Source: Catajapyx aquilonaris | Lineage: Eukaryota | Direction of reading: 5' to 3' | Assembly: GCA_000934665.2 (NCBI GenBank) | Contig: JYFJ02000166.1 | Span: forward strand, 124,001-188,000 | Length of the DNA stretch: 64,000 nucleotides | Shown: piece by piece, positions 3,122-51,900 of the stretch | Numbering within the stretch: position 1 is the stretch's first letter | How the letters are laid out: each line of letters begins with the position of its first letter | Position numbers and translations under genes: made by a program | The notes under the pieces: model-generated | Told to the model about the DNA's origin: nothing | What the model saw: only the letters and a program-made list of their open reading frames with translations | Databases searched by the model: none

Positions 3122-6100
3122 GTAAGTGAAGCAAGGGGGGGAAGATGGGAGAGGAGGTGGGGAGGTAGAGATGGAACCCGAAGGCAACAAGTCCCTGGCC
3201 GAACTCGAGCACTATTTTTGCTTCGGGGCCGGCGAGCTCCTTGATCAATCAGGAACGTAGTAGAAGAAGCCACGGTAGTAAACATGGGGGCGGAGGTTGG
3301 ATGTGCAGAACTCAACGGGAACCTGGATAAGCACGGACTATTCCGGCTATTTTTACACAGAAATCAGAAGCTGCTCGGGGAGAGACGCGTTTCTTGGAAT
3401 TAGCGGACGTTGCCGTGAGGTTTTCTCAAGATGGTCGTTGTTGTTGGGCAGGGCAATTGTACTTGCGGAGTGGCAGAGGGAGTCAGGGATAAGTTGTACA
3501 TATTTCTGGAAGTATGACAGTAATCGGTGACGTGCGGAAAGTGATTACACACGGCTTGCTGGCTGGCAGCGAAGAGGCTGCTAAGTTGTAAAGTGAAATG
3601 TTGTGCGAGTTCTAGTAGGTGATTTAATTTCTGACAACTTCTTTTAATATTTATGACAAATCACACTGCTATAATACAATGCGGTGCACTGCCCAAGTTT
3701 CTAGTTGAAGGAGAGGCGTTCAGAAAATTTATGGCTTGTTTACCCGAGCAACCAGCAACAGTCTCGACCAGAGATATGCGGCCATGATTGTTGGTTGCTG
3801 CAGGGAATAATTTGCAGCCTCTTCATCTCTCTCCTTCGGGGCTTGAGCACTGCACCACCCTATATAAAGCGCTATTAGCAAGAACCGTGTTGGAATTAGC
3901 ACCTAAGCTATATCTGTTAACCTCAGGAGTCAGTTGGGAAGGATTCCACTCAATCACCCTGTGTCTGGGCCTATTTTGTGACCAGCTCTCAGTGGACGTC
4001 GTTGGCAGCGGATCCAGGCTCCTTCACTGGAAGGAGTGACGACGTCAGTGACAGTGAGTTGTCACGCAACAATAAAAGTGTCACTAGTCGTATGCTGTAT
4101 GAGAGTTTAAGCCTCCGCAGATGAGGAGAGAAGTAAAGCAGAAGTCGTCGCAGACCTCGCCTTCTTCTTTTTTTGTGCCAAAGCGCACAGCTTCTCTTTG
4201 CCTTTCCGCCGAGTTTATTTTAGTCGAAGCTTATTCTGGGAGCCCCTTCCGAAGTAGAACTAGCTAGAATATTGGAAAAGGAGTCGTGCCATTACCACGT
4301 GGGCAGATGCGACAGAGAAAGTGGTAGCAGTGTTCCCCTTTCTGTTCCTCGAGAGAAGAGGACACGAGTGACAGCCAAGGTGGGCCTTATCCACGTGCTT
4401 TTGTGGCCCACATGTGGCCGATCGTTAGCATGCGCTGGGTTTCTGCTGTCTTGTCCCTATGCTGGCCTAGCCTCACTCTAATCCAGGGGGGTCTATTTTG
4501 CCCCCGGTGACGCGGGCGGAAGTTAGCAAAATATTCGCGTTGTGTTGCATCTCCTGGGAGTTGTTGGCCAATGTAAAAATGCCAAAGCATTGCCAAATGT
4601 CTGACGGTTTGGTATCGCAGAAATATCCTGGAATAATTAGGCAGCGGGCTGCGCGAGTTTTTCCGCTGGTTTATTTGGCGGAGGGATATGTATCCACATT
4701 GGCACCGTATTTATGGAGTTGGCTTTGTGCATTGACTGTGCAGGTATAACATTGCCAAGAAACACGCAGTCAACAAGGTTCTTACTTTCGTTACTAGCAT
4801 GAAATATAACATTATTAAGTTGTTTGCAATAATTTTGCCTGTAATCTTTTTGAGATAAAACACGAGGAGAATTGTTAATTCCATTGTAATTCCGTTTAAT
4901 TCAAATGTGTTTGTGTTAGAAAACAGTGCCATTGAATCGCGTGGATTTGCGATTTAAATATTTCAGTTCAGTGAAGTGCGTGGCTCGCACGGCTAGCAAA
5001 CGTTGTACAGCAGGCTGAACAGTATAGCTATTTCACAGCAAGGAAACGGACCTCTGTATGTTTTGGCCGGGACACCGCTTCCAGTATAGGCCAATAATGC
5101 CATGTTACATTACAGTCGTCACACACAATTAACTTCTCTGGCAACGTGCATTTGACAAGAATTTGCACACACTGTGGCATTTGGAATAAAAAAAAGGGAG
5201 TCGAGCTGTCCCTCTGCATCGAAGACAGATGTTTATCCAGTGGAAGGAATTGAGCCAATTATAATTTGCGCAGCTTTTTTTGTGTGTGTGATGGCGGGGA
5301 GCAGTTTACATTTTTTAACAGCCCGCACCCTCCAATTCCCGAAAAAAAGGAGGGTCGCTCTAAAACCAGCGACGCATCATCAGAAAATGAAACCAGTGTA
5401 AACAGAATTCCGTGTTGTTGACTCCAACAGCAATTAATCGTGTACATTTACTCAAACGAGAGGCCTGGCGGGTTCAAAGCCGTGTTGTGCTTTGCATCCA
5501 AACATTTGGATGTCAAAATGACAACAAATCAACTTGTGTCACTCTCCGAAGAAGGCAAGCAAACTGTGGTTCCCGTGCAGTGCTTGTGGTCGCTGTATGT
5601 GTAAGCCACTAAACTCGTCATCCAGCTGTGATTGTCTCATGCAGGCAAGCACAAAATGCTGGATAAAAATTGCGCCGCTGGTGTCGATGAACCAGTGGCA
5701 GAATCACCACTGCCAGTTATTTTAGCCAACAGAATTAATTGTAATATATCATGCATAAATTTGAAGATTAAGCTACTTGACACTACTTGAAAAGGTATGA
5801 TCTAAAGATTTTTTCTTTCTTTCGGCAGGTAGTGGTGCTGAAGTGGTTGTCTGACCGAGTGTTAGATGAGAAAGGAGAGGATCTGAAGGAGCATCTGGAG
5901 CAGTGGTGGCGCCCCGATGACATGGTAGGGTCAACATAAAAGAATGGCATAATTCCAATGGATGAGGGCCATAATCCTCCAAACCACGAGACTGTTTTAC
6001 AAAGCACGTTCGCTCTTGTTTCGACAGTTTCTTTGACCCCCTGCCGTACTCCTGCAGGCACAGTAGCTGTTACTCTAATTCGGAATTAAGGCTAACTCAT

Positions 6101-25278: not shown

Positions 25279-28200
25279 TAATAATAATAATAATATGCCT
25301 AAATTCAGAGAAGTCAGAACTTGCATGAACAACAACTTCAACAGGCAGAGGTTGATGATTTAAAACCCCATAACTGCAAGTTTATTGCTTTTGAGATAAG
25401 GAGAATGGGGAGAGACATGACCCACATTTTGGTTAAGTCCTCATGTTCCCCTGAACAGCAGAAGCAGGAAAGTGGACATGATTATTTTAGAAATTTAAAC
25501 TCTTGAATCTAGATGATGTAACTTATTACTTTCATTACATCTCCTGAAGGTGTTGTGCAATTGGAATGTACACTGTTTTCAGGGAGGAAAATTGGAAACA
25601 ATTGCTGTTTTCAGTCACGAGTAGTTAATTGTTAGTCATTTTGGCAGTGTGAGGTTCACGTATTTGGTCAAATAATGTAAATTATTGTGAAGAAATTTGA
25701 GGCCTTTTAACCAACTTGTACCGTACATCTTATTTGCGCTTGTTTGTGAATCTTGTCCCCTGATCACAAACTCTGCACTAGCCGTATGTTGCGGATGTAG
25801 TCAGGAACTTGTGTGCAGTATTCCCCCATTAAATGTGACAGTTTTTGCTGATGTTAATATTATCCTCATTTTCAGAGCAACGGTCCGATGCCTCCAATGG
25901 GTGGAATGGGTCCCATGATGCACTCGTGTCCCAACTCCATGATGGGAGGGTGCCAGCCCAACAATCATCTCCCACCTCAGGGCACCAATGGGGGTATGCT
26001 GCCTGGTGCTGGTCCTCCCAACGGAAAGGGTGGGATGGCTCCCATGGATGGTCCCATGATGCAGCCTGGGGGTGGACCAGGAGGTGGACCAGGAGGTGGG
26101 GGTGGGGGTGGTGGCCATCTCATGTCCAACAACATGGGAGGCCCTCCATCCAGCGGAAGTCCCCTCATGCATCCTGGCGGAATGGGGCATCCCGGAGGAG
26201 GTGGTGGAGGCGGCGGGGGAGGGAATGGAAGTGGTGGGAATGGAGGTGGTGGGGGAGGGGGCCCCAGGAATTCACACCCTGGGGTTGGAGGCCCAATGAT
26301 GCCAGGGCAACCTGGGACACAAGGACCCATGATGAACCCCATGAACACACCAAACCACCTCATGTCAATGCACCAGCCAACCACACTAACAGGTTAGATA
26401 TTTATTCTGGTTACTATTGATAGACAGTCATACGATGCATCGACAGTCAGGTGTAGGAATAAAAATAACTGATCTTGACATCATGATGATCATTGAAGTG
26501 AAGAAGAACCTGCACATACGATAACTTCTAGATCAAACATTGTATCCCAATTTTGAACCTGATACTTACTTGCAGGCGTGAAAGTTCCCGATGAAAACCT
26601 GACCCCCCAGCAACGGCAGCATCGAGAAGAGCAACTTGCAACCCTCAGGAAGATGCAGCAGATGCTTTTTCCCGAGAACCAAGTCCCACCCAACATTGTG
26701 GACAGCATGATGGGCATGGTTCCCGGTCCCGGTCCCGGTCCTGGAGGACCCCAGCAACAGCAGGGCGGTGCACCTCCGCAAGGGGCCGGGGGACCTCCTC
26801 ATTCTGGAGGGCCTCCACCTGGGATGATGGGAATGGGTGGGGGTCACCCACAAGGAATGATACCCACCTCCCAGGGGATGATGATTCCGCAAGGTATGAT
26901 CGGCAGCCCTGGTGGATGCTCACCTGGAAGCATGATGCAGATGATGCAGCAGAAAGGTGGACCAGGGACTCCAACTGGAATGATGCCCCAGATGATGCCT
27001 GGGGGTCCTGGACAATGCCCCGGGCAGAACCAGCAGCAGCACCATCCGCCAATGTCAGTGGCAGCACAGATGGAGTGGCAGAAACTTCAGGAGCAGTTCT
27101 ACGAGGAGAGGAAGAAGAAGGGCGGTGGGGCATGCAGCATGATGGGAATGCATAGCCCAGGGCCATCACCTCAGATGTGTATGGCGATGGGAGGGATGCC
27201 TATGCAAGGAGGACCTATGCAAGGGGGGCCCATGCAGGGAGGACCAATGCAGGGAGGACCCATGCAGGGAGGACCTATGCAAGGTGGGCCTATGCAGGGA
27301 GGGCCTATGCATGGAGGACCCGTGCATGGAGGCCCCATGCATGGAGGCCCCATGCAGGGAGGCCCCATGCAGGGAGGGCCCATGCAGGGAGGGCCCATGC
27401 AGGGTAGCCCTCTGCAGGGTGGACCCATGCCGGGGATGCCACCAAGGGGTATGACACCAGGACCCCACCAGAGGATGCAGGGGCCACCACCACCTTACCA
27501 CCAAACGCAACGGTCAGCCAGTGTTCCCATGACCAGCCCCACACCTCACTCACCTGGGGCCCTTACTCCAGGACTCTCCCTCCCCTCCCCAAGGCAGGGT
27601 CCAGGGGCAGCCCAGGGACTTAATTCACCTGCAGATCCTTCCCGGATGTTCCTACCTGGTGCCCAAGGCAATGCGAGGATTCCAGGCCCCAGCCCATCGA
27701 GCCTTCACAGCACCCCAATGGACTCACCCAATCCCAGTAGACTTAATCAGAGTAATCCAGGAACCCCAGTGCCATTGGGAAGTGGAACCCACCCGTCTCC
27801 CGGCTTAGGGAGGAAGGACAATGGTGGTCCTCCTCCTGGTGGCCCGCCAGTTTCGGACTACCAATCACCTGTGACACCAGTGACTCAATCGGCTGGCACA
27901 CCAACCTCAAGTCAGCAAGGGGATGGCATGTTTGGTAGGACGTTGCAGACCTTTGCGCAGAAGCAACAGCAGCAGACTCAGCAACAACCTGGACCTTCTC
28001 CACAACAGCAGCAGAACAAGGAACCCAATCTGATGCCAGTCCCATCTCCGCAGCAAATACAATACCTCAATGCATTTGAGGGACAGGAACTGACCATCCA
28101 AAAGCAGCCCAACACCAGTTTAAGAGACACTGACATCATGTCACCTTCCCTACCTCCAACCAGCATGGATAGTGGGATGCAGTCCAACGGGCCTGATTCT

Positions 28201-30765
28201 CAGGGGCCGCGGATGTCTGGGCCTAACACACCCCTCACACCGTCATCTTCCAATGACACGATGCCACCGAGATACGCAGCTGCTGGTGGTGGGGGTCCGC
28301 ATACCCCGCACACGCCTGGCAGTGACAGTGTGAACAGGTTTCCAGTTCCAAGCCCACAGTCAACACCAGTGGGTGTGGGCAACTCAGGAGTGGGCAACTC
28401 TGCCCCTCACACACCCGGGGGTGGTGACACCAAAAGTGGAGGTGGTGGAGGCAATACACCGCAGCAGAGGTTTCCCGGTCCGAGTCCGCAAGGAAGTGGT
28501 AGTGGGGGGCCACGGACGCCTGGGACTAGCCCACAGCAACAAATGCCTGATGGTATGGGTCCTCCTGGGAGGTTCAATCCTGGGAGTAACAATCCTAATG
28601 CAAACCAACCTGGTTCATTTGCACCCTGTGCCGGTGGTAAGTTCTCGGACATGTCGCCACCCACCAAAGTGGAAGGTCCCTCAGGCGGCCCTCCATTTGC
28701 GTGTGGGCAGCCGCAGCCACCAGAAAACCTTCCCCTTAACCCAAATGTGACTGGTGCAGTGTCAAAGATCCCTTTCGACCCAATCACCTCCATGGCGCAG
28801 ATGAGCCAGCAGTTGACCAGTGGTGGGGCTCCATCGCCAGGTGGCCCACCAGGTGGTCCACCTCCACCAACATCTCTTGGTGGTCCTCCACCAGGCATGA
28901 TGAACAGCATGGCAACCATGAACATGGGGGGAGTTGGTGGCATGGGTGTGGGTGGGGTCGGGGGTGTAGGCGGACCCCACATGGTCAGTTTCAATACATC
29001 GCTCCAGTCAATGCAAGGTCTGCAGCAGATGGGTGGGGATATGGGGGCAATGCAGTGCCCGCCTGTTCCAACCTCCTGTGGAGCCCAGGTTGGTGGCGCT
29101 GTAATGATGAATGCAGCAGGTGGAAACATGGGACCTGGACCCCAGACCGTTAACAACACATACGTGAATGCAACCATGACCATACAACAAATGAACATAC
29201 AAAACATGCCTCCTCACTCGTACGGTGGGGGGAATGGACCTCCCATGGGTGGGCAGGGGCCTCCTGGTGGCGGTCAGGGACTTATGCCATGTTCAGTGTC
29301 CCAGCCGCCAAGTGGCAGTGTTAGCTCGCCTCTAGTGTCTGGTGCAGTGTCGTCGCCCAAAATGGGAGGCCCAGGCCCGATGATGATGGGTGGCCCATCG
29401 AGAGGTGGCTCGTCACCATACCCAAACCCAGCTATGGTAGCTGCAGCTGCGGCAGCCGCTGCTGCAGCAGGACAGAGGATGATGGGCCCTGGAGGGCAGG
29501 CGGGTGGAGGTGGTGGGCCTCCTCCTGGCAGGTCGGCCCCAGGACCTAGTCCAGGGCCACCTGTGGTGGGTAGCCCTTACAACGGCACCAGTGTCCAAGT
29601 GAAAGCCAGTGCACCGAACACTATCCAATACCTACCAGCTGTGAGGCCACAGGGAGGTGCAGGTGGTAATGGAGGAGGCGGTGGCATGCCGGGGGGCCCA
29701 GTGGGACATGGTCCCGGTGGTCCTCCTCGGGGGCCACCCAGCCTGGAATTTTTGCAGAGGTTTGCCACCCCTCTCTCAGGGATGGATGGGAAGATGCCTC
29801 CGCACAACCTGCAGTACTTCCAGAGTGGCAACGGTGGGCCTCCTCAGCCTCACCAAGGTCCACATCCACACCCGTCTCACCCTCACCAGCACCAGCACCA
29901 GCACCCTCATCCGCACCAGCACCCGCAGCAGCAGCCTAACATGATGGGAGGGCCTGGTCACATGGGAGGACCCATGGGTCACATGGGGGGTCCCGGTGGA
30001 GGGATGGTGTCATCTATGGCGGGAATGAATGGGCCCATGGGAGGTGGGCCCCCTAGTGGAGGTTGCATGATGGGGCCCAATGGACCAGTGGGAATGAATG
30101 GGCCTCCCAGTGGTGGAATGGGTGGGCCTATGGGACCTATGGGACCCATGCCAGGACAGATGATGGTTGCCAGGACGTCAGCAGGGATGGGCCCCCATCC
30201 GCACCAAGGCCCACCTCACCCTCCGCCACACATGATGATGCGGCCAGGGAACCACCCAGGTGGGCCTCCTGGGCAGCAGATGGGTGGGATAATGTACAAT
30301 GTGGGCCCCCACCCGGGTCATCCTCACTCGCACCCTCACCCGGACATGTTTCAGTCTCAGCCAGGTGGGCCCCCAAATGGACCTCAGGGCGGCATGGGGC
30401 CCCACAACCACCACAACCATCAGATGATGGGTTCGGGACCCGGGGGTGGGTTTAGTGGGGGTGGTGTTCCTGGGAAAGGAGTGATGTCAATGGGCCCCCA
30501 CCCTGGCCAAGGGCAGGGGGGGCCCGGGACCCCTGACACCTCGCAACCTTTACCTCCCTCGATGGGCCAGTCGGGTGGGTTCAAGTCATCCCCGTTCTTA
30601 GGCCCCACCACGGCAGACCCCAACTACGCGCAGCAGTTCCACAACTTCCAGCAACAGTTGTATGCAACAAACACTAGGAGTCAGATGGGTGGCGGCGGGG
30701 GTGGGCCTGGACAAGGGCAGGGGGGAGGTGCTGCCCCTGGGCAGAACTTTTTCGGACCCAAGTGA
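3022..30765 (+). CDS. BCL9: BCL9/legless, long (5'-partial) model with N-terminal WHIM1-3 module; exons 3022-3121, 5829-5924, 11461-11515, 13213-13400, 13985-14654, 23792-24063, 24128-24349, 25876-26392, 26576-30765 (>2100 aa)
   Basis: All introns GT-AG with matching phases (0,0,1,0,1,0,0,1). One open frame through to TGA at 30763-30765. Contains BCL9 HD1, HD2 and HD3. Confidence 0.8.
5829..5924 (+). CDS. Exon, second half of WHIM1-like motif (VVVLKWLSDRVLDEKGEDLKEHLEQWWRPDDM)
   Basis: Acceptor ttttctttctttcggcag|, donor |gtaggg; 96 nt, phase 0-0. Absent from the ORF track. Confidence 0.8.
11461..11515 (+). CDS. Exon, WHIM2 motif (RGLCAGQDAFNNVYWYLD)
   Basis: Acceptor tccgtttcag|, donor G|gtgagt. 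Matches the R-x(4)-G-x-D-x(4)-YWY pattern of WHIM2/WSD. Confidence 0.85.
13213..13400 (+). CDS. Exon, end of WHIM2 plus WHIM3 (DLRLYRENNVKKASRRDWECVCVTYQDWVSFLKQFRKTTNVQERELYQYLNEDLFPLIEGQLK)
   Basis: Acceptor gtttcag|, donor AAG|gtgaga. GC3-rich codon usage. RLYRE...W-x-x-VC-x-T-x-x-DW...E-x-ELY resembles the RSF1/CECR2 N-terminal region. Confidence 0.85.
13985..14654 (+). CDS. BCL9: BCL9 exon, Gly/Ser/Asn-rich N-terminal region; internal Kozak ATG at 14096 (MIKESKE...)
   Basis: Acceptor ctgcctttag|, donor G|gtgagt. Coincides with ORF 14027-14731. gccaccATG at 14090-14098. Confidence 0.85.
15532..15556. repeat. (GA)n microsatellite
   Basis: Direct reading. Confidence 0.9.
23792..24063 (+). 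CDS. BCL9: BCL9 exon encoding HD1 (Pygopus-binding): QIFVFSTKRANMAAESVLQGQFPSIIAYHC
   Basis: Acceptor ttgttccag| (alternative in-frame cag 6 nt downstream), donor GAA|gtgagt. Motif matches legless/BCL9 HD1. Confidence 0.95.
24128..24349 (+). CDS. BCL9: BCL9 exon (KHPFKVQQFTRQNPAQWLN...GCWNQ)
   Basis: Follows a 64-nt intron; cgcccag| ... CAG|gtacga; phase 0-0. Confidence 0.9.
24546..25037. mobile_element. piggyBac-type non-autonomous element (MITE) in BCL9 intron, TTAA TSD
   Basis: TTAA|CCCTTAACTACGTAGGTGG ... CCACCTACGTAGTTAAGGG|TTAA. Subterminal repeat taactatgtaggtggggcctgagaggctccaa is mirrored at the right end. Confidence 0.85.
25207..25294. repeat. (AAT)n microsatellite with two AAC interruptions
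   Basis: Direct reading. Confidence 0.98.
25876..26392 (+). CDS. BCL9: BCL9 exon, Gly/Pro/Met-rich
   Basis: Acceptor attttcag|, donor G|gttaga; in frame with ORF 25888-26397. Confidence 0.9.
26576..30765 (+). CDS. BCL9: BCL9 last coding exon: HD2 (VPDENLTPQQRQHREEQLATLRKMQQMLFPE, beta-catenin binding), HD3 (AQMEWQKLQEQFYEERKKK) and C-terminal conserved blocks
   Basis: 1395-aa ORF; acceptor ttacttgcag|. HD2/HD3 recognised; further blocks KEPNLMPVPSPQQIQYL, FDPITSMAQMSQQL, NTYVNATMTIQQMNIQ, DPNYAQQFHNFQQQLYAT. Confidence 0.97.
27199..27423 (+). repeat. Coding 15-bp tandem repeat, 15 units encoding P(M/V/L)(Q/H)G(G/S)
   Basis: Units like cccatgcagggagga with third-position variation. Confidence 0.95.
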
Positions 30766-32833
30766 GGTTGTTAAATGAAGAAAAAAAGAAAGAAACTCAA
30801 TAAAGCAGGCGTGATAGGTGAGTGGGACCCTTCAAATTGTTTGGTTATTATTATTTGTTTTGAGTTTGAGTGCAGCTCCGTGTCACGTCTGTTGTGGACA
30901 GACACTAATATAGAGTGTTTTATTTTTGTGTGCGGGTTTTTTTGCGTACTGTTTTTTTTTTTTTTTGTGCATGACAAAGCAGGGCGTGGACTTGCAAATG
31001 CGATGAAAACGAATAGAAATGTAGGACGAAAATGGAGATTAATATGCCTTGGGGGCTGCTGAAGCTCAATTTATTAACTCAATAATTACTAAAACACATT
31101 AATAAACTGCACAAGAACCTGGGGAAAGACAAGTGAATATCGTGCAATAAAATTTTGACATTTGTAAAGTGTGGAAGACGTGACGATTTTTGATCCCATG
31201 GCAATAATTCAACGCGAAAACCAGAGCTGCACAATCATAACAAATAGTGTTGGAAGAAAAAAAAACAAAAACAAATTGCAGGTATTGTCACATAGGTTTT
31301 ATACAATGTGATGTGCTCAAAAAGTTCTGTTTTAAATGGTTATTATTTTTCAGTGTCCAGTGCCATGCAAGTTATTTTTTACTTCTGTGAATCACTTTCA
31401 AGGCAGTCCCTATTTTGTATAATTTTTATGGTGTAGTAGAGGTGCTTTCTTTTAGGAAGTTTGTAATTTTTTTGTGACAAGATCATGTGCAGCTGACAGA
31501 TTGTCTTTTTTAAAAATGTAGGTCCCCTCACCCAACCTCCCCCCCCCCTCCTCCCTGTAAAACGACACATGTAAAAAAGTTATAATTTTTTTCTCTATGA
31601 GATGACAGGAAATGGAGAAAGATGGCATGCTATCAGGTGTTCGTTTGTCTGCGTAACAAAATGCAAGAACGAAAAAAAAAAAAAAACAATGTGAAAAACA
31701 GTACGCAGGTCTACCTCACAGAAGGTGATAAGTGGTGCTTCTCTTAACCGATATTAAACGCATGCTTGAACGAAAAGGAACAGGACGTGATGTGTTTTAT
31801 GTGAAACGTGGAGCAAAGGAGCATGAAAAGCCGGACTACCCTCCACCTAGTGGAAATTAAATGAAGAAAAAGGGACAAATAAAGTGCGGGAACTGTAGAT
31901 AAACTGTTGGTTGATGCAACTCGGACACCCGCCCGCATTTTCCAAGTGCAAGTTTTGTGCAGTTAAAACTGAAGAAAAATAAGTGTACGACACGAACACG
32001 GACCTGGACGAAATGTGGCCATCATGAATTCACCTGTACATAGCCGCCCATTATTTTGTGCTCTTCATTTTCCTATTGTAGTAGACCTTTTTTTTAAAAA
32101 AACAACCTTATTATTATCACAGATAGTTGCTACCTCTGTTATCTGTGGACATGACTGCCTCTGTGAGGAAGGGCACTCTTTTTTTTTTCTTTTTTGTATA
32201 CAATTTTTTAATTATTGCTATTATTATAATAATATTATTTGTGTGGTCTGACCAGACATGTTCCCTTCATCACAGAGTTGTATCGCTGGCTTTTAGACTA
32301 AAAGAAGAAGAAATGGGTATTTAAAAAAAGAGAAACTGGGCCAGAATGGATTCTATTGTAGTAAAAGATGCGACCAGTTTGGTTGCACAGGCCCACATTT
32401 TGGCGAAAATGATAAAAAAATGATGCTGAACAGAGTACAATTGTCACTACAGTGTTATTGGAAAACATTTCTATCTTTTTATGCAAATAAACCAGCTCTA
32501 ACTGATATACATTCTCGTCGTATGAATCCAATATTTTTATCACCTCCTCTTTCGCTACATTAAAAATGGGGGGTATGGTAGATGCTGCTGCTCCTTACCG
32601 ATATAACATCCTGTCCTAGATTTCATATATAAACTAGTGACGTTCAGAATTCCAGCAATGTATAAAAAGATGTGACTTTTTTCCCCCGTACGTTTAGCAA
32701 CAACAAGGCTTGCTCTAAAAGGAAAGGACTATTTTTATTTTGTTCGGGTGGGTGAATGATTCATGGAACCGAAAAACCGCCCCCAACTTTTTTACAAGTC
32801 AGATTCACCTGAATCCTGATGCGCTTGTTTTAT

Positions 32834-32840
32834 TTCAGTC
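32834..32840 (+). promoter_or_regulatory. Candidate arthropod Initiator (TCAGTC) for the DUSP gene
   Basis: tttcagtcg lies downstream of an AATAAA at ~32486 (possible BCL9 polyA signal) and is followed by a donor-like AG|gtaaag at ~32877. Could equally be a splice acceptor. Confidence 0.3.
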
Positions 32841-33661
32841 GTGCCCTGGAAATAGCAGACATGAGCGCAATAGAAAGGTAAAGGTTGCACTATTAGTAAG
32901 AACGTAACAATAGGTGGAAGCTCAATTGTTAAATATAGCCCCAAGGACCGTCTTATGTTTATATGCCCGCCAGTAACACAAATGTTGACATTTCACTTTA
33001 AGAGAGAAGTGCTTGTGCTGCAAATGTTAACCCCAAGTTACGTAAGGCCAGCCAAATCATAGCGACTTTTCCGTAGGTCGCAAAGTTCTGGTTCAAGGAG
33101 TATTTTTTGAAGCTTTGGAAAGAAGCCCACTTGCTCATCTGTGACAGAAATAGAGCTGAGTTTGCTCTTAAATTTTTTGCTCTTGACACTGCGGTATTCA
33201 GGGCATTTGCAACTTCTCCGCAGGATGGTTGAGTATGTGGCGGGAGAGGGGAGCGGAGGAGGTGGTGGAGGGAGGGGAGGGAAGAGCAGCGCCAATGGGT
33301 GATGAGGTAACAGTAGTTGTGGAAGCCTCTTCCAAAATAAAGGAGGTAAGTTCCTTCTCTGTCCCTGAGAAAGTCACGTAAGGCATTTAGTTGGGTACGC
33401 AACGGTTTCTATTCTGGGCTCTTAATTAGTTTATTGCACCTTATTGAAGGGAAAGGACACTTAATTTTTGGGTGTTACATTGCATTACTTGCAGTGGTAA
33501 GCTTCGTGGTGAATTTTTTAATATACAATTGAATGCAATAAGTTTTGCGTCTTTTTTTGTGTATCTCTGATGGTTTTTGGACTCTCAGGTGTTTGTGGAT
33601 AACGTGTGCAACCCTTGATAGAGACATTGCTACATTTTGCATTGCAGATACAATTAGCACC

Positions 33662-35224
33662 ATGTCAACCGCATCATTCATTCGTCGATTCCCACCACGA
33701 GCATGCACCATTGATGAACTGCAGGAGCTAATCATCGAGCCTTCTGGTGGTGCTTACGTTCTTCCCTCCTCACCGAGTAATGAAGTCTATCCGGGGATCT
33801 TGATTGGCGATGCGTAAGTACTGTGCACATAATGGGTTTAGAAATGGGTACTTCACAATTTTGGTTTGCATTAGAAGGCATTGACATTTACCCATGCCAG
33901 CCCCTGTAATTCAGTGTCATTCTAACCACAATTTCATATTGCCATGAAACTCATTTTTACATTACTCCAAAACTGGTGGATTTAGTCCAACTGCCCTGTG
34001 CACCCTGACCCTGAAGGAGATGGGGGTGACCCACGTCCTAAATGCAGCTTATGGCCCACTTCGATGCAAGTACGGGTACAATGGCTTTGTGAGCACCAGC
34101 CAAACATACTATGAAGCAACTAGCATTACCTTCAAAGGAATCACTGCCATTGACTCCAATTCTTTCAACCTCGGGCGTTACTTTGAGGATGCAGCCGAGT
34201 TCATAGATGAAGCTCTGAGAGACCGTGGTAAATTACACATTTATTTTAACATAATTATGTGTAGATGTGGAAAATACAAACCTGCATAAATTGATGTAAA
34301 ATTTTCACGCTATGTACTTACACTGCAGCATGGACATAATTATTATGATAGCGTGTGCTTTTGCCTCACTAGTAAGAGGGAAGTGTGTGGACAACCCACT
34401 GGTCCACACACACTCGCAGACTGACCAGCTAAACAGGCTGCCCATTTCTAAACCCTGGCCAGCTTTATTTAGTGCTATTTGGGACTGGACTGACATTTAC
34501 GACCTTTCAGCTCATCTGCTTTAAACTGCGAGGGTTTGATCCAGTTGGGTGTGACTCACATACTGAATGCGGCCCATGGCACAGACTGGGAGAGATATGT
34601 GGACACTGGGAAAGAATATTACGAGTCCAGAGGGGCAAATGTGGAGTACATGGGGATTGAAGCAATGGATGTCACTGCTTATCAGTTACATGTCTATTTT
34701 GAGACAGCATCAGACTTCATTGAACAGGCTTTGGAACAGCATGGTACATTGCTTGCACTCTCCATCATACAGTACCAAATGTGGAGAAACCTTTTCCAAC
34801 TTGCAATTACTGTGTAACTTGCATAAAATACCTTATCACTTGATTACACCTGTGTTCTTGCCCAGACTGAAAATGTTTACAATGTTCAGTAACTGCCCCT
34901 TTTTGCATGATTGTTAATGCTCATATGCTTCGCAGAGTGTTCAATAGTTCTGTAGGCCTTGCGTTTCAATTGCCTTGCTCTTGTCACTCACGTAGATAAT
35001 ATTCTTTAGGAAAGGTGCTGGTTCACTGCAGAGAAGGGATAAGTCGCTCAGCCACGTTGGTCCTTGCCTTTCTGATGTTGAGACGAGGCATGACGGCACA
35101 AGAAGCAGTGAAGGCGGTGAGGGCCAAGAGGGAGATCATCCCAAACGAAGGCTTTCTGCTGCAGCTGTGCGAACTGAACGAAACGCTGTTGCAGCAGAGG
35201 AGGAACCAGAGCAAAACTTTGTAA
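33662..35224 (+). CDS. Atypical dual-specificity phosphatase (DUSP3/VHR-DUSP13/26-like); exons 33662-33813, [33986-34227 OR 34511-34743], 35010-35224; 202 or 199 aa
   Basis: [15 protein letters not shown](V/I)LNAA; catalytic [12 protein letters not shown] (HCx5R); [13 protein letters not shown]. Canonical splice sites. True start may lie in an upstream exon. Confidence 0.92.
33986..34227 (+). CDS. DUSP alternative exon 2A
   Basis: tttag|...G|gtaaat; 242 nt, phase 2 in / 1 out; [23 protein letters not shown]...[27 protein letters not shown]. Confidence 0.88.
34511..34743 (+). CDS. DUSP alternative exon 2B
   Basis: ctttcag|...G|gtacat; 233 nt, phase 2 in / 1 out; [23 protein letters not shown]...[27 protein letters not shown]. 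Confidence 0.88.
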
Positions 35225-36891
35225 CGCTTGTCCACATATTTAAAGGATTTGGTTGGGATGGGGATCAGGTGGGGTGTGGGTACAAAAATAATATGTGACC
35301 TACATGGAATTTGACTTGCGTTTTCTGCTTTCAAGTCCAGCATTCTTAATCTGGTGAATTGAAAGATGCCGTAAATTGGTGAAGGTGTCTCGTGCACATG
35401 AAACATCGTGCTAAGTTTGAGAAAACACTGCTGTAACAATTAGTTTTCATTTTTGAACTCCTCGATCTCACAATCAATATTTGTTTGTGGTGTCTAATTT
35501 ATATGTGCATTTAATGTTGAAATGCGCTAAAGGTAATGATCACAATCCATAGCTATGTATGAAGGGACAGGTTGTGAGTTTTTGAGAAACGGAAGATCTC
35601 TGCTAATAAAGTAAGGTCAGTAGAGTTTTGATGTTCCAGCCTAAACGGAATCAAGATGTATACTGATGTGATAGAAGCTGGGAAGGAAATAAATGCACAT
35701 TGCAAGAGGGATTTGCAGTGAAAATTATGACTCAGTTTTGTCCACATCTGTTCTTGTCTGTGTGACTCACAGGGTATTACAAACACCTGTGGGAGTAATG
35801 GGGATAATATGCAGGTTGTATTGCAGCACTTGCCTTTTTTTCTTGAATGGAGTAAGGAAGAAAACATAACTGCATCACTTAGGCACTTGGCTGGTGCTAT
35901 TGGCAGCTCCAAATTGGCATAAACACGCATGTGCTGCCCACGGAAAAAGTTCCAGTGGAGTGGGTTAGCAGAAACGTCATTTCTCTAGAATGCGAAACTT
36001 GTTGCTACAGTTCCTATGACGTGGGCAAAAGGTACGAAATATGGGATGTGCATATGTGTGTGTGGAAGTGTATCTGTTGGCCGCAACCTGTCTCCTGCCC
36101 TGTGAAACTGTTTCGGATATCTCCAGTTATGTTCAAGATACAAATTCACAATACGTGACTAGTGTTGACATGGCCGATGGCTAAATGAACAGAAAGAACA
36201 TGGGTAAAATAGTGGTGTGGTGAGTTTTACTTCATTCTCCTATTATGAATATATTCCTTTTGAAGCAAGAAGCCTTCTCCAAAAAGGTTGACAGAAGGCA
36301 ACGTCTACAGCAGGTTGCTTGTGCTTCAGATTCTCATCACACTACTCCCAACTTGGCCAGACTGCCAGAGAGTAGTGGTGGAAATTAACCCTGGAACTGT
36401 GATGTGGGGGTCGTTTTTAAGGACCCGAAAGGAATTAAAATGCATTCGAATGAGTGACCTTGAAGCGATAATGACCTGACACTCGGTGTATGCCTTTAAA
36501 AAAAATTACATTTCATGGATCACGTCCGGTTTCATAATTTTCACACCTACCAAAACGGACTGTACATGAGTCGTTGTTTTTGGACCCATGCTCTCATCAT
36601 TGTAATTATCTATGTCGGTGGTTTTCAAACTGGGGCACGCAAACACAATTTTGGAGGCATGCGAATGATATTGCACAAAGGCGTCCAGTCTCTACATTTG
36701 TGGGAACCATAACATTCTGATTCAACAAGAATTAACCAACTTCTGAGAAATACACAAAAAATGATCCTATAACACACCTACTCATTCCCAGCTTTCTTTT
36801 TGCTTCAAGGGCTTCAAGACCAATACCTTTCATGTGCAAAACAAAATTGAATGCGTCTGCGTGGCCTGACCAGTCACCTGTATAATTGATA

Positions 36892-37497
36892 TTAACCCTT
36901 AACTGGCATCCTCACTTAGCCATGCTTAACTGGTATCGTGGGGTCCTTTTTGGACCCCACGTCGTTTTTTCGATTACAAACTTACGTTAACAAAAAAAAT
37001 CAAAATATAAATGCTTCCTAAATTCGGCCGGGACTATAAGTGGCAGATAGAAAAAAAATTTGACCTCCTCTGACCCTTGGTTGACTGATGAGGCGGTGTT
37101 TACTGTTTACCCGTATCTCACATAAGTGACCCAGCAGCTGTAATGGTAGTCTCCTTACAATACTATACATAGATAAATTTTTTTACACCTCTGCGATTTT
37201 TTATGCTTGCTACATCATGAATTTGCCGTGTCTATTTTTTAGGGTCGGAAAAAACTGGTCGCTAACTGGTAACGTGGGGTCCTTTTTGGACCCCAAGATG
37301 ACTAGTGAGCGTTTAAATGACGTTAACTCCCATTCGAAATTTTTTCGTCGCTCATAATTTTTTTTTCAGGTGCGAAAGAGTATATTTCAGGAATATAGGT
37401 GTGGGAATTTTCATTTTGACAAAAACCTGCTTCAAGATGGTGACATAAGTATACCCTGGGGTCCAAAAAGGACCCCACGATACCAATTAAGGGTTAA
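36892..37497. mobile_element. Second piggyBac-type MITE, TTAA TSD
   Basis: TTAA|CCCTTAACTGG ... CCAATTAAGGG|TTAA. Subterminal motif taactggtatcgtggggtcctttttggacccc occurs twice direct (~36927, ~37264) and once inverted (~37458). Confidence 0.85.
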
Positions 37498-38051: not shown

Positions 38052-38078
38052 AACTACTACTACTACTACTACTACTAC
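38052..38078. repeat. (ACT)n microsatellite
   Basis: Direct reading. Confidence 0.9.
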
Positions 38079-39453: not shown

Positions 39454-39553
<100 letters not shown>

Positions 39554-48900: not shown

Positions 48901-51900
48901 GCAAACGCAACACGAGCAACGTGATGTACACTGTACGTGTGTTTGGCTAATGTCACGTCGAAGTACTTACCAGATTGTACCCAATCCTCTGGTAATAATA
49001 CTTTGCATAGTCATCCAGCCAGACCTCGGCAAGCCGGACCGAATTCCTCTTCAGCACGTTGACTCCGGACCGCCACTTGTAGGGAGACCTTCTCCTGAAG
49101 ATGTGTCCCACGTGGGAACAAGGGATTATCTCCAAAGTACCTCCGCACATCCACGTCTGAAACAAACGGACGCTACGTGTAAAGCCAAGTCCAAGATAGA
49201 CGCGGATTTGATCTCAAAAACTGAGAGAGTCACCTTGAAGGAAATCTCCAGGTTCTCCCCTCCCCAGATGTCAAACCCATTGTCGTATGAGCCAAGCGTC
49301 TCGAAGAATTCCCTGTCGATGCTGAACAGTCCTCCAGCCATGGTCGGACTGTAGACAGGTTCGGCAGTGTGCTCATGGCGTTTCTTCTCACGGTCCGGTA
49401 CAGCGTGCCAGTTGAACTGGAATAAAAACAGTTGGAGGACATTACGTGCCTGGGAGTCATATCAGTTTCCATCCTACAACACAAACGAGCCTGGCCAAAA
49501 GGCAAAAGGCAACCGTTTGAATCAGCGGTCGTTGAGAGTGTGCACTTGTGTGCTGTTGAATAGAGAGAGCTCTCTTTAGCAATGAGGTGGAGCCGTGTAG
49601 AGGCGGAAAGTGGAACTCCCTGGGAAATAGTCAACATCCATTGCAGAGCTCGAGGACAGATCAAAAAAGCTGCTGCTGCACAAAAGTGGTTACACGGAAA
49701 AAGGATACGGACTTTACCAATTGCTGCACAAACTATATACTCTCGTCTATTTTTCAAAAAAAACAAAACAAAGAGAGTGTATTGTAGCATTTGAATACTC
49801 ACCTGCAGATTCCAATCGAATCCGCCGACGTTGACTCCTCCCGAGTCTCGCCAGTGAAATTCAAACGAATTGTCGTTGATGACATCAATGACAGGACACA
49901 CCACAGTTGTACGGTTTCGAGCTATCCGATCCAGCAGGGGTTCCAACCAGCCTGCAAAAAAAGCCAGAATAGTGCTACGATCATTTCCAAAATTCATTCG
50001 CGGTACATAAAAAAACGTCCCTCTAATTAATTAATTACTATAATTGGATTGGACCACCACACTCGTAAAAAAAGCACGATTCATGTCGCTAGCACTGTAT
50101 ATAGTCCAGCAGAAAATTAATGGCACTGCCTCACGCAGGACTCTGCTGGTCACCACTTCTTGCATTATGGAATCCTGCCCTGCCCTTATGCTGTACACCG
50201 ATTTTTTGGGGGGCAGAGTATGTGGAATATACACGCAGACTGGATGCAAAATTGAATTGGGAAAGTCCGATGGTGAGTACCGAGCCGGGGGTGTTTTTTT
50301 AGACACCAAAATAAATTAGCGGTGGCAAGAGGCTTTTGCCGGAGACTGATAAGGCGGAGACATTTGTTTGCAGGGCTAGAACTGCTCGTGTGTCCCGCTC
50401 TCGGTTTGTACGACGGAGTAAAATGAGATTGGGATTTATGTCTAGGTACTTCAGGGACCTGCGATTAAATCTTTCTCCCCGTTCAAATACGGCGTGTGAG
50501 GCCACACCTCAACGTCCTAATCCGAGCTAGAAAACACGGTTTTTACAATTTGTCATGTTGGTAAAAAAAAAACTCTCAATCCACCCGCACCCTGTATAGG
50601 TACAGTAAAAATTTGCGTGAAAATTTCATGCAAAAACTTTGCTCTTTTTGAGTGAAGTTACTTTATTCGTAACTCAAATCGAGTGGAAAATTACTCGAAA
50701 GAAGAGTGAGAATGAGTGGAAGACTACTCGTTCAAGCCAGTGAAACCCATTTCACTCAAATTGAGTGTTTTTTTTCGCTCGAATTGAGCCGAAAATCCAC
50801 TCAACTTGAGGGAAATGATCGCTTACTTTGAGTGACAATATTTCACTCAGGTGATCGAGTGATTCCCATTCAAAAATAGTCAAATCAAGTAGGAGAAAAT
50901 AGTGAAAATCACTCAAATCGAGTGGAAAAACACTCAACAACTTTTAGAGTGATATAATAAATGTCGGCTGGTTGCAGGCGAATAAAACCGGTTGCCAATA
51001 ACTGCCCTGGCACTGGTTTCGCCAAAATTGCAAATTCGGTATTTATGAACAAACCCCGGGTGCTAACACTACAGAATCGCTGCCCCCCCTCTGGCAATTA
51101 ATAACCACCCCCCACACAAAACACAATCACTAAATATGACCAGTAAAAGAGCTGACATAATGGCGCAAATTGGGGATTATCTAAACCTTTTATTAACTTC
51201 ACACTCTGTCGGTTTCCACGCCATGCATTTCAGCATGTGTGCCTTGCATTTCGACACCTCTTTTTTTCCCCTGCTGCTTTTATTATTATTATTTTAAAAA
51301 AAGCCGATGTTACAAGCACACTTACCCGGAGAGCACTCGCAATGAGAGTCCAGGTATGTCAGGACATCTCCGGTTGCTTTTGCAGCCCCGACCAACCTGG
51401 CCCGGATAAGCCCTTCTCTCTTATCAGTCCGGGCTATCTTCACTTTTGGATACTGCTTCACGTAATCCTCCAGCTCCGTCTTCAGGTGGGCTGCAATCAC
51501 ACAAATTATGACATGTACACACAAATGTTTATTTACACAGCAGGGACAGGGGGGGTTTGTTTGCACCGCAGTGGACTTGGACGTGATTTGCATTGTGCAG
51601 CATCAACCGCAGGGAGGGTTGCATCGGTGTTCGGGTCGATATGTCCATAATACAGCAATTACCAGATTCAGTCTAGCTGCAGTGATGATGGCCTCAAACA
51701 TGCTGTTCGACATATTAAAACGGGGCGAGACTAAAACTTTTGGCTTATTGGCTCATCTTGTCTGCAAACAATGCAAAAAAAATGTCTTATTTGGAGACGA
51801 CCTAGTGCGAAAATTTCACTTGTAACTTGGACAGTAAACTACTAAAAAAAGGAGGACCTCAGTGTGATTTGAAGACACGATAACTTGTGCTGACCTGTGA

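Follow-up and report, generated by a model that had tools for sequence, protein, structure and literature searches.

A tandem pair of homologous, probably mutually exclusive exons in a DUSP3/VHR-type phosphatase gene of Catajapyx aquilonaris

Few kinds of alternative splicing reliably alter protein function, and the exchange of mutually exclusive homologous exons is one of them. The specificity of VHR-type phosphatases is poorly understood, and an exon swap inside the catalytic domain of such a phosphatase would provide a natural paired experiment on VHR-type substrate choice. Insect Dscam exon 6 is said to use docking-site/selector RNA pairing, in work reportedly published by Graveley in 2005. 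In one survey, conserved mutually exclusive exons are frame-incompatible and reliant on nonsense-mediated mRNA decay (NMD) in 20 of 28 genes (PMC5740500, main text). At a related atypical dual-specificity phosphatase locus in humans, DUSP13 (DUSP13A/DUSP13B), a single gene gives rise to two phosphatases that are homologous to each other (PMC9741552, main text). For human DUSP3/VHR itself, D92 is described as the general acid, and the loop A63-N72 as moving when a ligand binds in the active site (PMC11822521, in excerpt).

Here we describe a DUSP3/VHR-type gene of C. aquilonaris in which the second coding exon is present in two versions. The gene lies in a stretch of 64,000 nucleotides, the whole of which is called the window below. 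We consider it likely that an old tandem duplication of this exon gave rise to the two copies and that these are spliced mutually exclusively.

Gene structure and the two exon copies

As predicted from its reading frames, splice sites and signature motif, the gene is a four-exon atypical dual-specificity phosphatase of the DUSP3/VHR type with a product of about 200 residues, and all of its features lie on the forward (+) strand. The coding part of exon 1 runs from the ATG at 33662 to 33813 (152 nt, ending in phase 2); its donor reads TGC/GTAAGTAC, where the slash marks the boundary. Its product comprises the N-terminal ~50 residues, including a conserved NEVYPG..IGD stretch, and this N terminus aligns with those of the orthologue-like proteins P0036, P0029 and P0052. 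Two versions of the middle exon follow, each running from phase 2 to phase 1: the canonical version, exon 2A (33986..34227; 242 nt), whose nearest relatives are the 2A-type exons of dragonflies, mayflies and ostracods, and the derived version, exon 2B (34511..34743; 233 nt), whose active-site loop is shorter than that of 2A and which carries an insertion of 2 residues. The coding part of exon 3 (35010..35224; 215 nt including the TAA stop) supplies the only P-loop (HCxxGxxR) and the C-terminal helices. It is followed by a 3' UTR (35225..35711, as far as the transcript contig described below extends) with an AATAAA at 35688-35693. The boundaries of all four exons (1, 2A, 2B and 3) conform to AG/exon/GT.

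Joined through 2A, the exons give 609 nt (202 codons plus stop), and joined through 2B they give 600 nt (199 codons plus stop), so that the predicted isoforms A and B, of 202 and 199 residues, fit a single catalytic domain of about 180-200. Inclusion of both copies brings a stop five codons into 2B, and skipping of both puts exon 3 out of frame; only mRNAs with one copy therefore stay in frame into the P-loop exon. Double-copy mRNAs would end at that stop and then be subject to NMD, while mRNAs with neither copy would yield a frameshifted product lacking the fold.

The peptides encoded by 2A and 2B are alignable end to end, with a BLOSUM62 global score of 131 (z = 15.4; 500 shuffles gave a mean of -29.4, a standard deviation of 10.4 and a maximum of 9). 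When each exon was searched against the window by tblastn, the other copy was recovered at E = 1.3e-12 and 1.6e-13; tblastn found no third copy of the middle exon in these 64 kb, and by this search exons 1 and 3 are each present there only once. At the DNA level the two copies are only 54% identical (123 of 227 aligned columns), which indicates that they are old. A preliminary description of this locus had held the two exons to be homologous, intact, identical in phase and well diverged, and had argued that inclusion of both or neither shifts the frame before the single HCx5R exon. The coordinates, the alignment statistics and the frame arithmetic given here bear this out.

Transcript-like sequence from this species is available for the locus in one public run only, X1, of unrecorded kind and stored as contigs (0.28 of sampled words). 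A 944-nt contig in this run matches 33986-34226 and 35009-35711, in both segments without a mismatch. In it, exon 3 follows directly on 2A; the 782 nt skipped between them, 2B included, have GT..AG ends, and the contig stops 18 nt past an AATAAA. The junction 34227^35010, proposed earlier as a check, is hence present with 2B skipped, and an mRNA containing 2A exists in this species. The contigs of X1 gave no cover of exon 1, of exon 2B or of the junctions 33813^34511 and 34743^35010; because rare variants get dropped from contigs, the missing 2B says nothing about 2B use. Separately, we observed that the 944-nt contig begins flush at the first base of 2A and contains no exon 1 letters, for which a break in the assembly graph is the only explanation offered.

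Candidate control of exon choice

Two mechanisms of exclusivity were considered and rejected: steric hindrance, because the intron between 2A and 2B is 283 nt long, and U2/U12 incompatibility, because the donors, compared with the U12 consensus, read GTAAGT, GTAAAT and GTACAT.

Intron 1 contains a candidate docking arm (33834..33848, forward strand), 21 nt after the exon 1 donor, which is a perfect 15-nt complement of a candidate selector arm (34441..34455, forward strand) located 56 nt before the 2B acceptor. When the three introns were dinucleotide-shuffled 1000 times, no shuffle produced a perfect complement of at least 15 nt from one intron to another (maximum, 14). The 15-mer is found at only the two arm sites in the window, even with up to 2 mismatches allowed, and is not a dispersed repeat. 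The arms are paired in both the minimum free energy (MFE) and the centroid structure of 33814-34510, and the extended arm duplex has an energy of -29.8 kcal/mol. From this complementarity we infer a helix looping out 2A, as a candidate control element in this genome. Such a long-range helix would bring the exon 1 donor beside 2B and so bias the choice of exon, whereas 2A would be used when the helix is absent. We put forward this bias as a tentative proposal, to which we give somewhat less than an even chance. The candidate 15-bp looping helix offers a simple, testable handle on exon choice in a two-exon cluster.

Nearly even, in our estimate, are the chances of another account, under which the pair is exclusive but the 15-nt complement is fortuitous: splice-site competition and protein factors would make the choice, and frame incompatibility and mRNA decay would clear the errors. 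Pairs that depend on frame incompatibility and NMD are common, as the survey figure quoted at the outset (PMC5740500, main text) illustrates. Folded as a whole, the 697-nt stretch shows no exceptional stability (z = -1.42, not significant; 2 of 20 shuffles fold as well). Nor did the duplex energy of introns 1 and 2 taken whole discriminate, as 15 of 300 shuffles did equally well, and this statistic was replaced by the longest perfect complement. Before 2A, the sole selector candidate for the docking arm is weak (33844-33859 with 33880-33895; 16 nt at 75%, local energy -12 to -17 kcal/mol). Chance would nevertheless have to account for a match that none of the shuffles reproduced, that is no dispersed repeat in the window, that has the duplex energy given above, that appears in MFE and centroid alike, and whose arms lie where a looping helix would act.

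A second looping pair, around 2B (34230-34245 with 34805-34820), was rejected as too weak (16 nt, 81%, -11.2 kcal/mol). No Rfam family matched in the window.

The swapped region of the catalytic domain

Exon 3 alone matches the Pfam family DSPc (PF00782) at 69.5 bits (cut-off, 33.5), and its P-loop carries the HCxxGxxR(S/T) signature with the catalytic Cys and Arg. Exon 2B alone scores 21.8 bits for DSPc, below the cut-off, and exon 1 alone and 2A alone match no Pfam family, each of these three pieces being too short to judge alone. Pfam scans of the single-exon pieces and of natural stand-ins found no rhodanese/CH2 or other extra domain. The stand-ins, P0036 (A-type) and P0049 (B-type), are the proteins that were folded as well as scanned, so statements about the fold hold for relatives of the isoforms. 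Their predicted folds have pLDDT values of 94.2 and 93.8, respectively, and the B-type model superposes on VHR (8tk2_A) with a TM score of 0.89 and an rmsd of 1.8 Å at 47% identity.

Both exon versions align with human VHR (2A, E = 2.3e-12; 2B, E = 1.2e-12). The aligned counterpart of both is residues ~50-114, and the swapped stretch corresponds to ~43-116. The middle exon encodes about 78-80 residues, which begin just past the part encoded by exon 1 and reach the helix that precedes the strand of the P-loop; according to the secondary structure of the stand-in models, about 78 of the ~150 core residues, or roughly half of the catalytic domain, are thereby exchanged. As the preliminary description had presumed, the general-acid Asp is kept in both versions (AID in 2A, AMD in 2B), each time aligned with D92, the Asp of the KAND motif in the acid loop of VHR, and it lies some 30 residues ahead of the Cys. 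The variable insert that it had noted is also found to differ, in that the loop after the conserved LNAA motif varies between 2A and 2B in both length and sequence.

The largest differences in length and sequence between 2A and 2B fall at the counterpart of VHR A63-N72 and beside the acid-loop Asp. Because the swap covers both of these elements under one shared P-loop, the isoforms would have the same nucleophile and different catalytic-cleft walls, and they probably differ in substrate preference or kinetics. The earlier suggestion of a splice-encoded specificity switch, not recognized from the literature, thus retains a basis in the position of these differences at active-site loop counterparts, to be read as a prediction from alignment. 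Its claim to novelty does not extend to the splicing device, which is already well known.

Rather unlikely, though a real possibility, is that both isoforms are made and differ in stability, regulation (e.g., redox control or dimerization) or off-site partner binding, and not in substrate specificity. The swap takes in about half of the catalytic domain, which is more than two loops, and in the alignment cysteines are frequent in 2A-type loops and absent from 2B. In addition, the title of entry 8to0 names mouse DUSP3 as a built-in part of the doublet microtubules of sperm, so noncatalytic roles exist in the family. Against this, the biggest differences lie at the counterpart of a loop that lines the active site in VHR and moves when ligand binds, and next to the acid-loop Asp.

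Exon lineages in other arthropods and relation to known systems

The preliminary description had proposed an orthologue survey, and both copies were indeed found in two other arthropods. A prediction from the ostracod Darwinula stevensoni (P0025) contains, in order, exon 1-like (9-44), 2A-like (46-124), 2B-like (129-205) and exon 3-like (207-270) segments, and a prediction from the springtail Allacma fusca (P0047) contains both copies in the same order. Another A. fusca prediction (P0045) consists of exon 1, 2A and exon 3. All three are automatic gene predictions and not transcripts. In P0025 and P0047, the two copies have been merged into one protein, a misannotation, and recognizing the pair would therefore correct arthropod gene models.

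Two further sequences, P0049 (184 aa, from a 1029-nt contig) and P0266 (188 aa, from a 1136-nt contig), have an uninterrupted frame of exon 1, a 2B-type exon and exon 3, and they are near Allacma in all three exon parts. Their short contigs and unbroken frames mark them as putative spliced mRNAs of the B form. Single-exon homologue searches returned 1 protein among 98 candidates for 2A and 2 proteins among 22 candidates for 2B, both of them fish dusp3; the protein of C. aquilonaris itself was absent from the results of these searches.

In a tree of 68 rows, the 2B-type exons form a clade of 10 with support of 100/98, and a quick tree of 130 rows gave this clade an SH-aLRT value of 95. A 2-residue insertion is present in all 10 rows of the 2B clade and in the second Darwinula copy; it is present in none of the 11 pancrustacean 2A rows. 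When separate A and B profiles were compared, 14 of 306 segments scored higher on B; 11 of these had been used to build the B profile, 2 were new (P0184, +14.7 bits; P0228, +12.9 bits) and 1 stood at +0.4. The second Darwinula copy fell outside the 2B clade in the free tree; forcing it into the clade cost 11.9 log-likelihood units, which the AU test did not reject (p = 0.126). These comparisons show the 2B type, as defined by its sequence, to be a separate and conserved exon lineage in other arthropod-type sequences. The exon pair is common to this gene and springtails, and an ostracod probably has it too.

A scan of metagenomes for related loci yielded two among 270 pattern matches. One, L002, has a 2B-type exon upstream of exon 3-like pieces, and exon 1 and 2A were not found in it. 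The other, L001, carries a 2B-like exon that lacks 3 residues and stands alone, with none of the other exons (1, 2A and 3) found within 16 kb of it. Neither locus contains the introns in which the helix arms would lie.

The preliminary description had named, as the outcome that would tell against it, the use of one exon only and neutral evolution of the other. That 2B is such an unused relic here, merely still intact-looking, with only the 2A isoform made, we regard as improbable: the 2A-exon 3 junction is the only one seen, no contig of the sole run holding the locus contains 2B, and the slightly damaged exon of L001 suggests that exons of this kind may in some lineages degenerate or become orphaned, but contigs lose rare variants, and 2B is open over 77 codons in the correct phase and has AG and GT ends, a better polypyrimidine tract than 2A (0.65 versus 0.50 pyrimidines), a terminal branch no longer than that of 2A (0.40 versus 0.52) and all 13 of the alignment columns in which eight 2B-type sequences, itself among them, do not vary.

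Under the duplication and mutually exclusive splicing that we favor, 2B would also be used in this species, probably in some tissue or stage that lies outside the one run available. The earlier claim that one gene makes two phosphatases accordingly stands in part: the reading frames, the junction of 2A with exon 3, the conserved 2B clade and the springtail-like B frame speak for it, and use of 2B went unseen in the contigs of run X1. A fuller scenario holds that the pair has been kept since before the split of springtails, ostracods and winged insects, with the cleft retuned by splicing and the switch here set by a 15-bp helix that loops out 2A. As a whole, we find this scenario doubtful. If true, it would amount to a splice-encoded specificity switch that operates within the catalytic domain of a phosphatase and whose RNA control element can be read.

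For both exon versions, the best relative with a solved structure is human DUSP3/VHR (PDB 1VHR, 3F81 and 8TK2). The gene described here resembles VHR in its P-loop type (HCxxGxxRS) and its acid-loop Asp and differs from it in having two versions of the stretch that matches VHR residues ~43-116. The literature searched, as listings and the opening parts of abstracts, contained no description of a duplicated middle exon in VHR or DUSP3-like genes, and a DUSP22 paper considered as a possible prior description (PMC13680495, in excerpt) proved unrelated. The main texts of two human-centred surveys of tandem-duplicated mutually exclusive exons list no DUSP3-like event, although their supplementary tables could list related ones: "DUSP" appears a single time in PMC9741552, where it refers to the whole-protein DUSP13 event, and is absent from the main text of PMC5740500. 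The exons 2A and 2B share the character of the events treated in those main texts, in that they are adjacent, homologous, old, similar in length and identical in phase, the frame is lost when both are included, and the difference between the isoforms is confined to the homologous region.

The arrangement of the candidate helix is also like that reportedly found in Dscam exon 6, in that one arm is in the intron that follows the upstream constant exon and its complement precedes the variable exon, and pairing would, as there, bring the variant to the constant exon. Unlike Dscam exon 6, this cluster has two variants only, a convincing candidate selector for 2B only, and a looping-out of the competitor that is predicted here from one sequence.

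Both exons are related more weakly to the solved DUSP13 structures (2GWO, 2PQ5 and 5XJV) than to VHR. In DUSP13 the substitution spans the whole protein, so that there are two P-loops there, whereas here the middle exon alone is swapped and a single P-loop exon is shared. Judged against these sources, tandem mutually exclusive exons with incompatible frames are a well-known device, and this phosphatase gene seems new to it.

Two frame-incompatible middle exons in a DUSP3-like phosphatase gene

The phosphatase gene is compact and lies on the + strand. Its exon 1 (coding from the ATG at 33662 to 33813, 152 nt) ends in phase 2, exons 2A (33986-34227, 242 nt) and 2B (34511-34743, 233 nt) both run from phase 2 to phase 1, and the coding part of exon 3 (35010-35224, 215 nt) ends in TAA. 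The introns measure 172 nt (exon 1/2A), 283 nt (2A/2B), and 266 nt (2B/exon 3), each with GT..AG ends. Because of these phases, exon 1 and exon 3 form an open frame with either middle exon (609 nt with 2A, 600 nt with 2B). The two are incompatible with each other in frame: joint inclusion brings a stop five codons into 2B, and omission of both leaves exon 3 in the wrong reading frame, so that the frame is lost before exon 3, as the preliminary description had claimed.

The 80-residue 2A peptide and the 77-residue 2B peptide can be aligned over their full length, and the global BLOSUM62 score is 131, compared with a mean of -29.4 (standard deviation, 10.4; maximum, 9) for 500 shuffles. A tblastn search of the 64-kb window with the four exon peptides located the middle exon exactly twice (cross-matches, E = 1.3e-12 and 1.6e-13) and exons 1 and 3 once each. 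At the DNA level the copies are identical in 123/227 aligned columns (54%), and the duplication is therefore old. The earlier reading of 2A and 2B as homologous, intact, equal in phase, and well diverged was thus borne out, with coordinates and sizes exact.

Exon 3, which bears the [11 protein letters not shown]-loop, alone scores 69.5 bits against Pfam DSPc (cut-off, 33.5). Of 349 candidates retrieved with this exon, 272 proteins had E ≤ 1e-3, and the best 120 were listed; among the matches listed, the named relatives closest in identity (69-80%) come from arthropods (ticks, a horseshoe crab, an ostracod, mayflies, damselflies, and springtails) and are annotated as "dual specificity protein phosphatase 3-like". 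For both middle exons the best solved relative is human DUSP3/VHR (E = 2.3e-12 for 2A and 1.2e-12 for 2B), on which they span residues about 50-114. Each retains an Asp aligned to the acid-loop Asp of VHR, as proposed earlier for the presumed general acid; in VHR this position is D92, which acts as the general acid-base (PMC11822521). The best PDB sequence match of both exons is 8to0 chain Fx, mouse DUSP3 in a sperm flagellar doublet-microtubule structure, a reminder that the DUSP3 family also has noncatalytic, structural roles.

Several neighboring features were recorded. Just upstream, a single 1400-codon open frame (26563-30765, + strand), very rich in Pro/Gln/Gly/Met repeats, matches Pfam BCL9 at its start (65.6 bits; cut-off, 25); a gene for a BCL9/legless-like Wnt co-activator probably ends its series of large exons here. 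Downstream lie a short (ACT)n array at 38053-38078, a longer, perfect (AAT)n array of 32.7 copies at 39456-39553, and a 266-codon open frame (49230-50030, - strand) that may be a glycosyltransferase exon and gives a weak, subthreshold Glycos_transf_2 match (19.9 bits; cut-off, 23.3).

Transcript evidence and exon choice

X1, a public run of unrecorded kind kept as contigs, is the sole run with part of the locus; when its contigs were placed on 32500-37000, they gave no cover over exon 1 or 2B, although contigs cannot show absence. One X1 contig of 944 nt covers 33986-34226 and 35009-35711 with zero mismatches and omits the intervening 782 nt, which have GT..AG ends. It stops 18 nt downstream of an AATAAA at 35688-35693 and is therefore a spliced, polyadenylation-site-terminated 2A-form transcript in which 2B is skipped. 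The 34227^35010 junction, named in the preliminary description as a check, is thus observed. The contig begins exactly where 2A does (33986) and carries zero letters of exon 1; this 5' end could mark a break in the assembly graph, a branch at which more than one sequence joins upstream of 2A, or an alternative 5' exon.

Frame incompatibility of this kind, in which joint inclusion leads to NMD, is the common arrangement among conserved mutually exclusive exons (20/28 genes in PMC5740500). As a further candidate, an inverted-repeat scan of 33600-35300 yielded 20 pairs, the best of them a perfect 15-nt complement on the + strand between a candidate docking arm at 33834-33848, 21 nt past the exon 1 donor, and a candidate selector arm at 34441-34455, 56 nt ahead of the 2B acceptor. 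An inter-intron complement of this length arose in 0/1000 dinucleotide-preserving shuffles of the three introns (mean of maxima, 8.9; largest, 14), and the 15-mer has no further copy in the window at ≤2 mismatches. In both the minimum free energy and centroid folds of 33814-34510, the helix closes a loop of ~590 nt that holds the whole of exon 2A. The extended arm duplex reaches -29.8 kcal/mol, compared with only -12 to -17 kcal/mol for local alternatives of the docking arm. The stability of the whole 33814-34510 fold is unremarkable (z = -1.42; 2/20 shuffles equally stable), whole-intron duplex energy is no outlier (15/300 shuffles equally good), and ahead of 2A there is only a poor candidate selector (16 nt at 75%). 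The candidate looping helix is a clean, testable element, and we regard its role as a real regulator of exon choice as possible, at slightly less than an even chance. Two other mechanisms of exclusivity were ruled out: steric hindrance by the 283-nt length of the 2A/2B intron, and U2/U12 incompatibility by the donor sequences, set against the U12 consensus.

The exon pair in other arthropods

Both copies stand in tandem, in the Catajapyx order, in public gene predictions from two arthropods. A single predicted protein of Darwinula stevensoni (P0025) contains exon 1-like (9-44), 2A-like (46-124), 2B-like (129-205), and exon 3-like (207-270) segments; one from Allacma fusca (P0047) runs from a 2A-like segment (96-178) through a 33-residue read-through into a 2B-like segment (211-288) and then exon 3, while a second Allacma model (P0045) joins exon 1, 2A, and exon 3. 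The pair is probably misannotated in public arthropod gene sets.

Two short contigs come from a close relative of Allacma: P0049 (184 amino acids; 1029-nt contig) and P0266 (188 amino acids; 1136-nt contig; source name "dual specificity phosphatase 3"), each an unbroken frame of exon 1, a 2B-type exon, and exon 3. Because exon 1 and 2B are separated by 2A and intron sequence in the Allacma genome, both contigs are best interpreted as B-form mRNA after splicing. When 1.84 billion representatives were searched with the 2B peptide, 593 matched at E ≤ 1e-3, and the best 150 were listed; further contigs among the matches listed carry exon-only 2B-type frames (P0124, P0128, P0135, P0136, P0158, and P0235), as do the later additions P0184 and P0228, and Orchesella cincta P0082 joins 2B to exon 3.

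In a tree of 68 exon 2 segments, 2B-type sequences form a clade of 10 rows (support, 100/98; SH-aLRT, 95 in a quick tree of 130 rows), and the window 2A is joined first by dragonflies and mayflies (96/75) and next by ostracods (83/84). Together with the exon 3 relatives, this placement makes a pancrustacean arthropod the most likely source of the window. The end branch of the window 2B is 0.40, against 0.52 for 2A; 2B is thus not drifting faster. A 2-residue insertion ahead of the strand leading to the acid loop is present in 10/10 2B-clade rows and in the second Darwinula copy, and in 0/11 pancrustacean 2A rows. That Darwinula copy falls outside the clade in the free tree, so its orthology rests on position and the shared insertion; forcing it inside costs 11.9 log-likelihood units, which the AU test does not reject (P = 0.126). 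A B profile outscored an A profile for 14/306 segments. Eleven of these had gone into the B profile itself; the others were P0184 (+14.7 bits), P0228 (+12.9), and a single segment at +0.4. Mean identity is 43.8% between the window 2B and other 2B rows (n = 9) and 50.7% between the window 2A and pancrustacean 2A rows (n = 10), compared with 37-38% between types. Together, the tandem predictions, B-form frames, clade, insertion, profiles, and identities show an old duplication whose two copies have been retained under constraint in several lineages, at least one of which appears to make the B form. We consider it likely that 2A and 2B are a functional mutually exclusive pair.

Other arrangements also appeared. 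A metagenome contig of 15954 nt (L001) contains a solitary 2B-type exon (5736-5954) in which 3 residues are deleted and the C-terminal end is odd. Sequence resembling exon 1, 2A, or exon 3 is absent from the 16 kb; the exon is either a decaying copy or part of a gene with very long introns. P0123, a 252-amino-acid DUSP with three successive homologous LNAA-to-acid-loop segments before a single P-loop segment, looks as if a cluster of three exon copies had been read through, in a different DUSP lineage. P0012 from Turdus and the sturgeon predictions P0021 and P0038 also have two middle segments ahead of one P-loop segment.

Predicted consequence of the swap and comparison with known systems

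Folds were predicted at high confidence for natural stand-ins from 30-row alignments: P0049 for the B type (pLDDT, 93.8; pTM, 0.91) and P0036, the closest relative of the window A form, for the A type (pLDDT, 94.2; pTM, 0.90). The P0049 model superposes on VHR (8tk2_A) with TM 0.89/0.90, a root mean square deviation of 1.8 Å, and 47% identity. In both models the swapped exon (~78 residues) supplies about half of the core. It spans two short helices, one strand, a long loop, and a short helix, and then the acid loop with the strand that leads into it and the long helix preceding the P-loop strand. The copies differ most in three places. In Catajapyx the 2A version of the loop that follows LNAA exceeds the 2B version by 5 residues, in keeping with the variable insert pointed out earlier. 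The VHR counterpart of this loop, A63-N72, lies at the edge of the active site and moves by as much as 1.4 Å upon active-site fragment binding (PMC11822521). 2B also has the 2-residue insertion, and the residues directly after the catalytic Asp are S-F-x-L in 2A types versus A-Y-Q-L-H-like in 2B types. Given these differences, it is plausible that the isoform swap would change substrate preference or kinetics, and the exon pair offers a natural paired experiment on VHR-type specificity.

The preliminary description called this splice-encoded specificity switch unfamiliar. For a DUSP3-like gene that stands, in that we found no description of a mutually exclusive pair in the literature searched. 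It does not hold for the mechanism, which will not surprise a specialist: mutually exclusive exons that arose by tandem duplication are well documented (PMC9741552, PMC5740500), as is docking site/selector RNA pairing (Graveley 2005, as cited in PMC5740500). The DUSP3-like exon pair is real and old, and the nearest mention found, human DUSP13, differs from it in that the substitution there is described as covering the whole protein.
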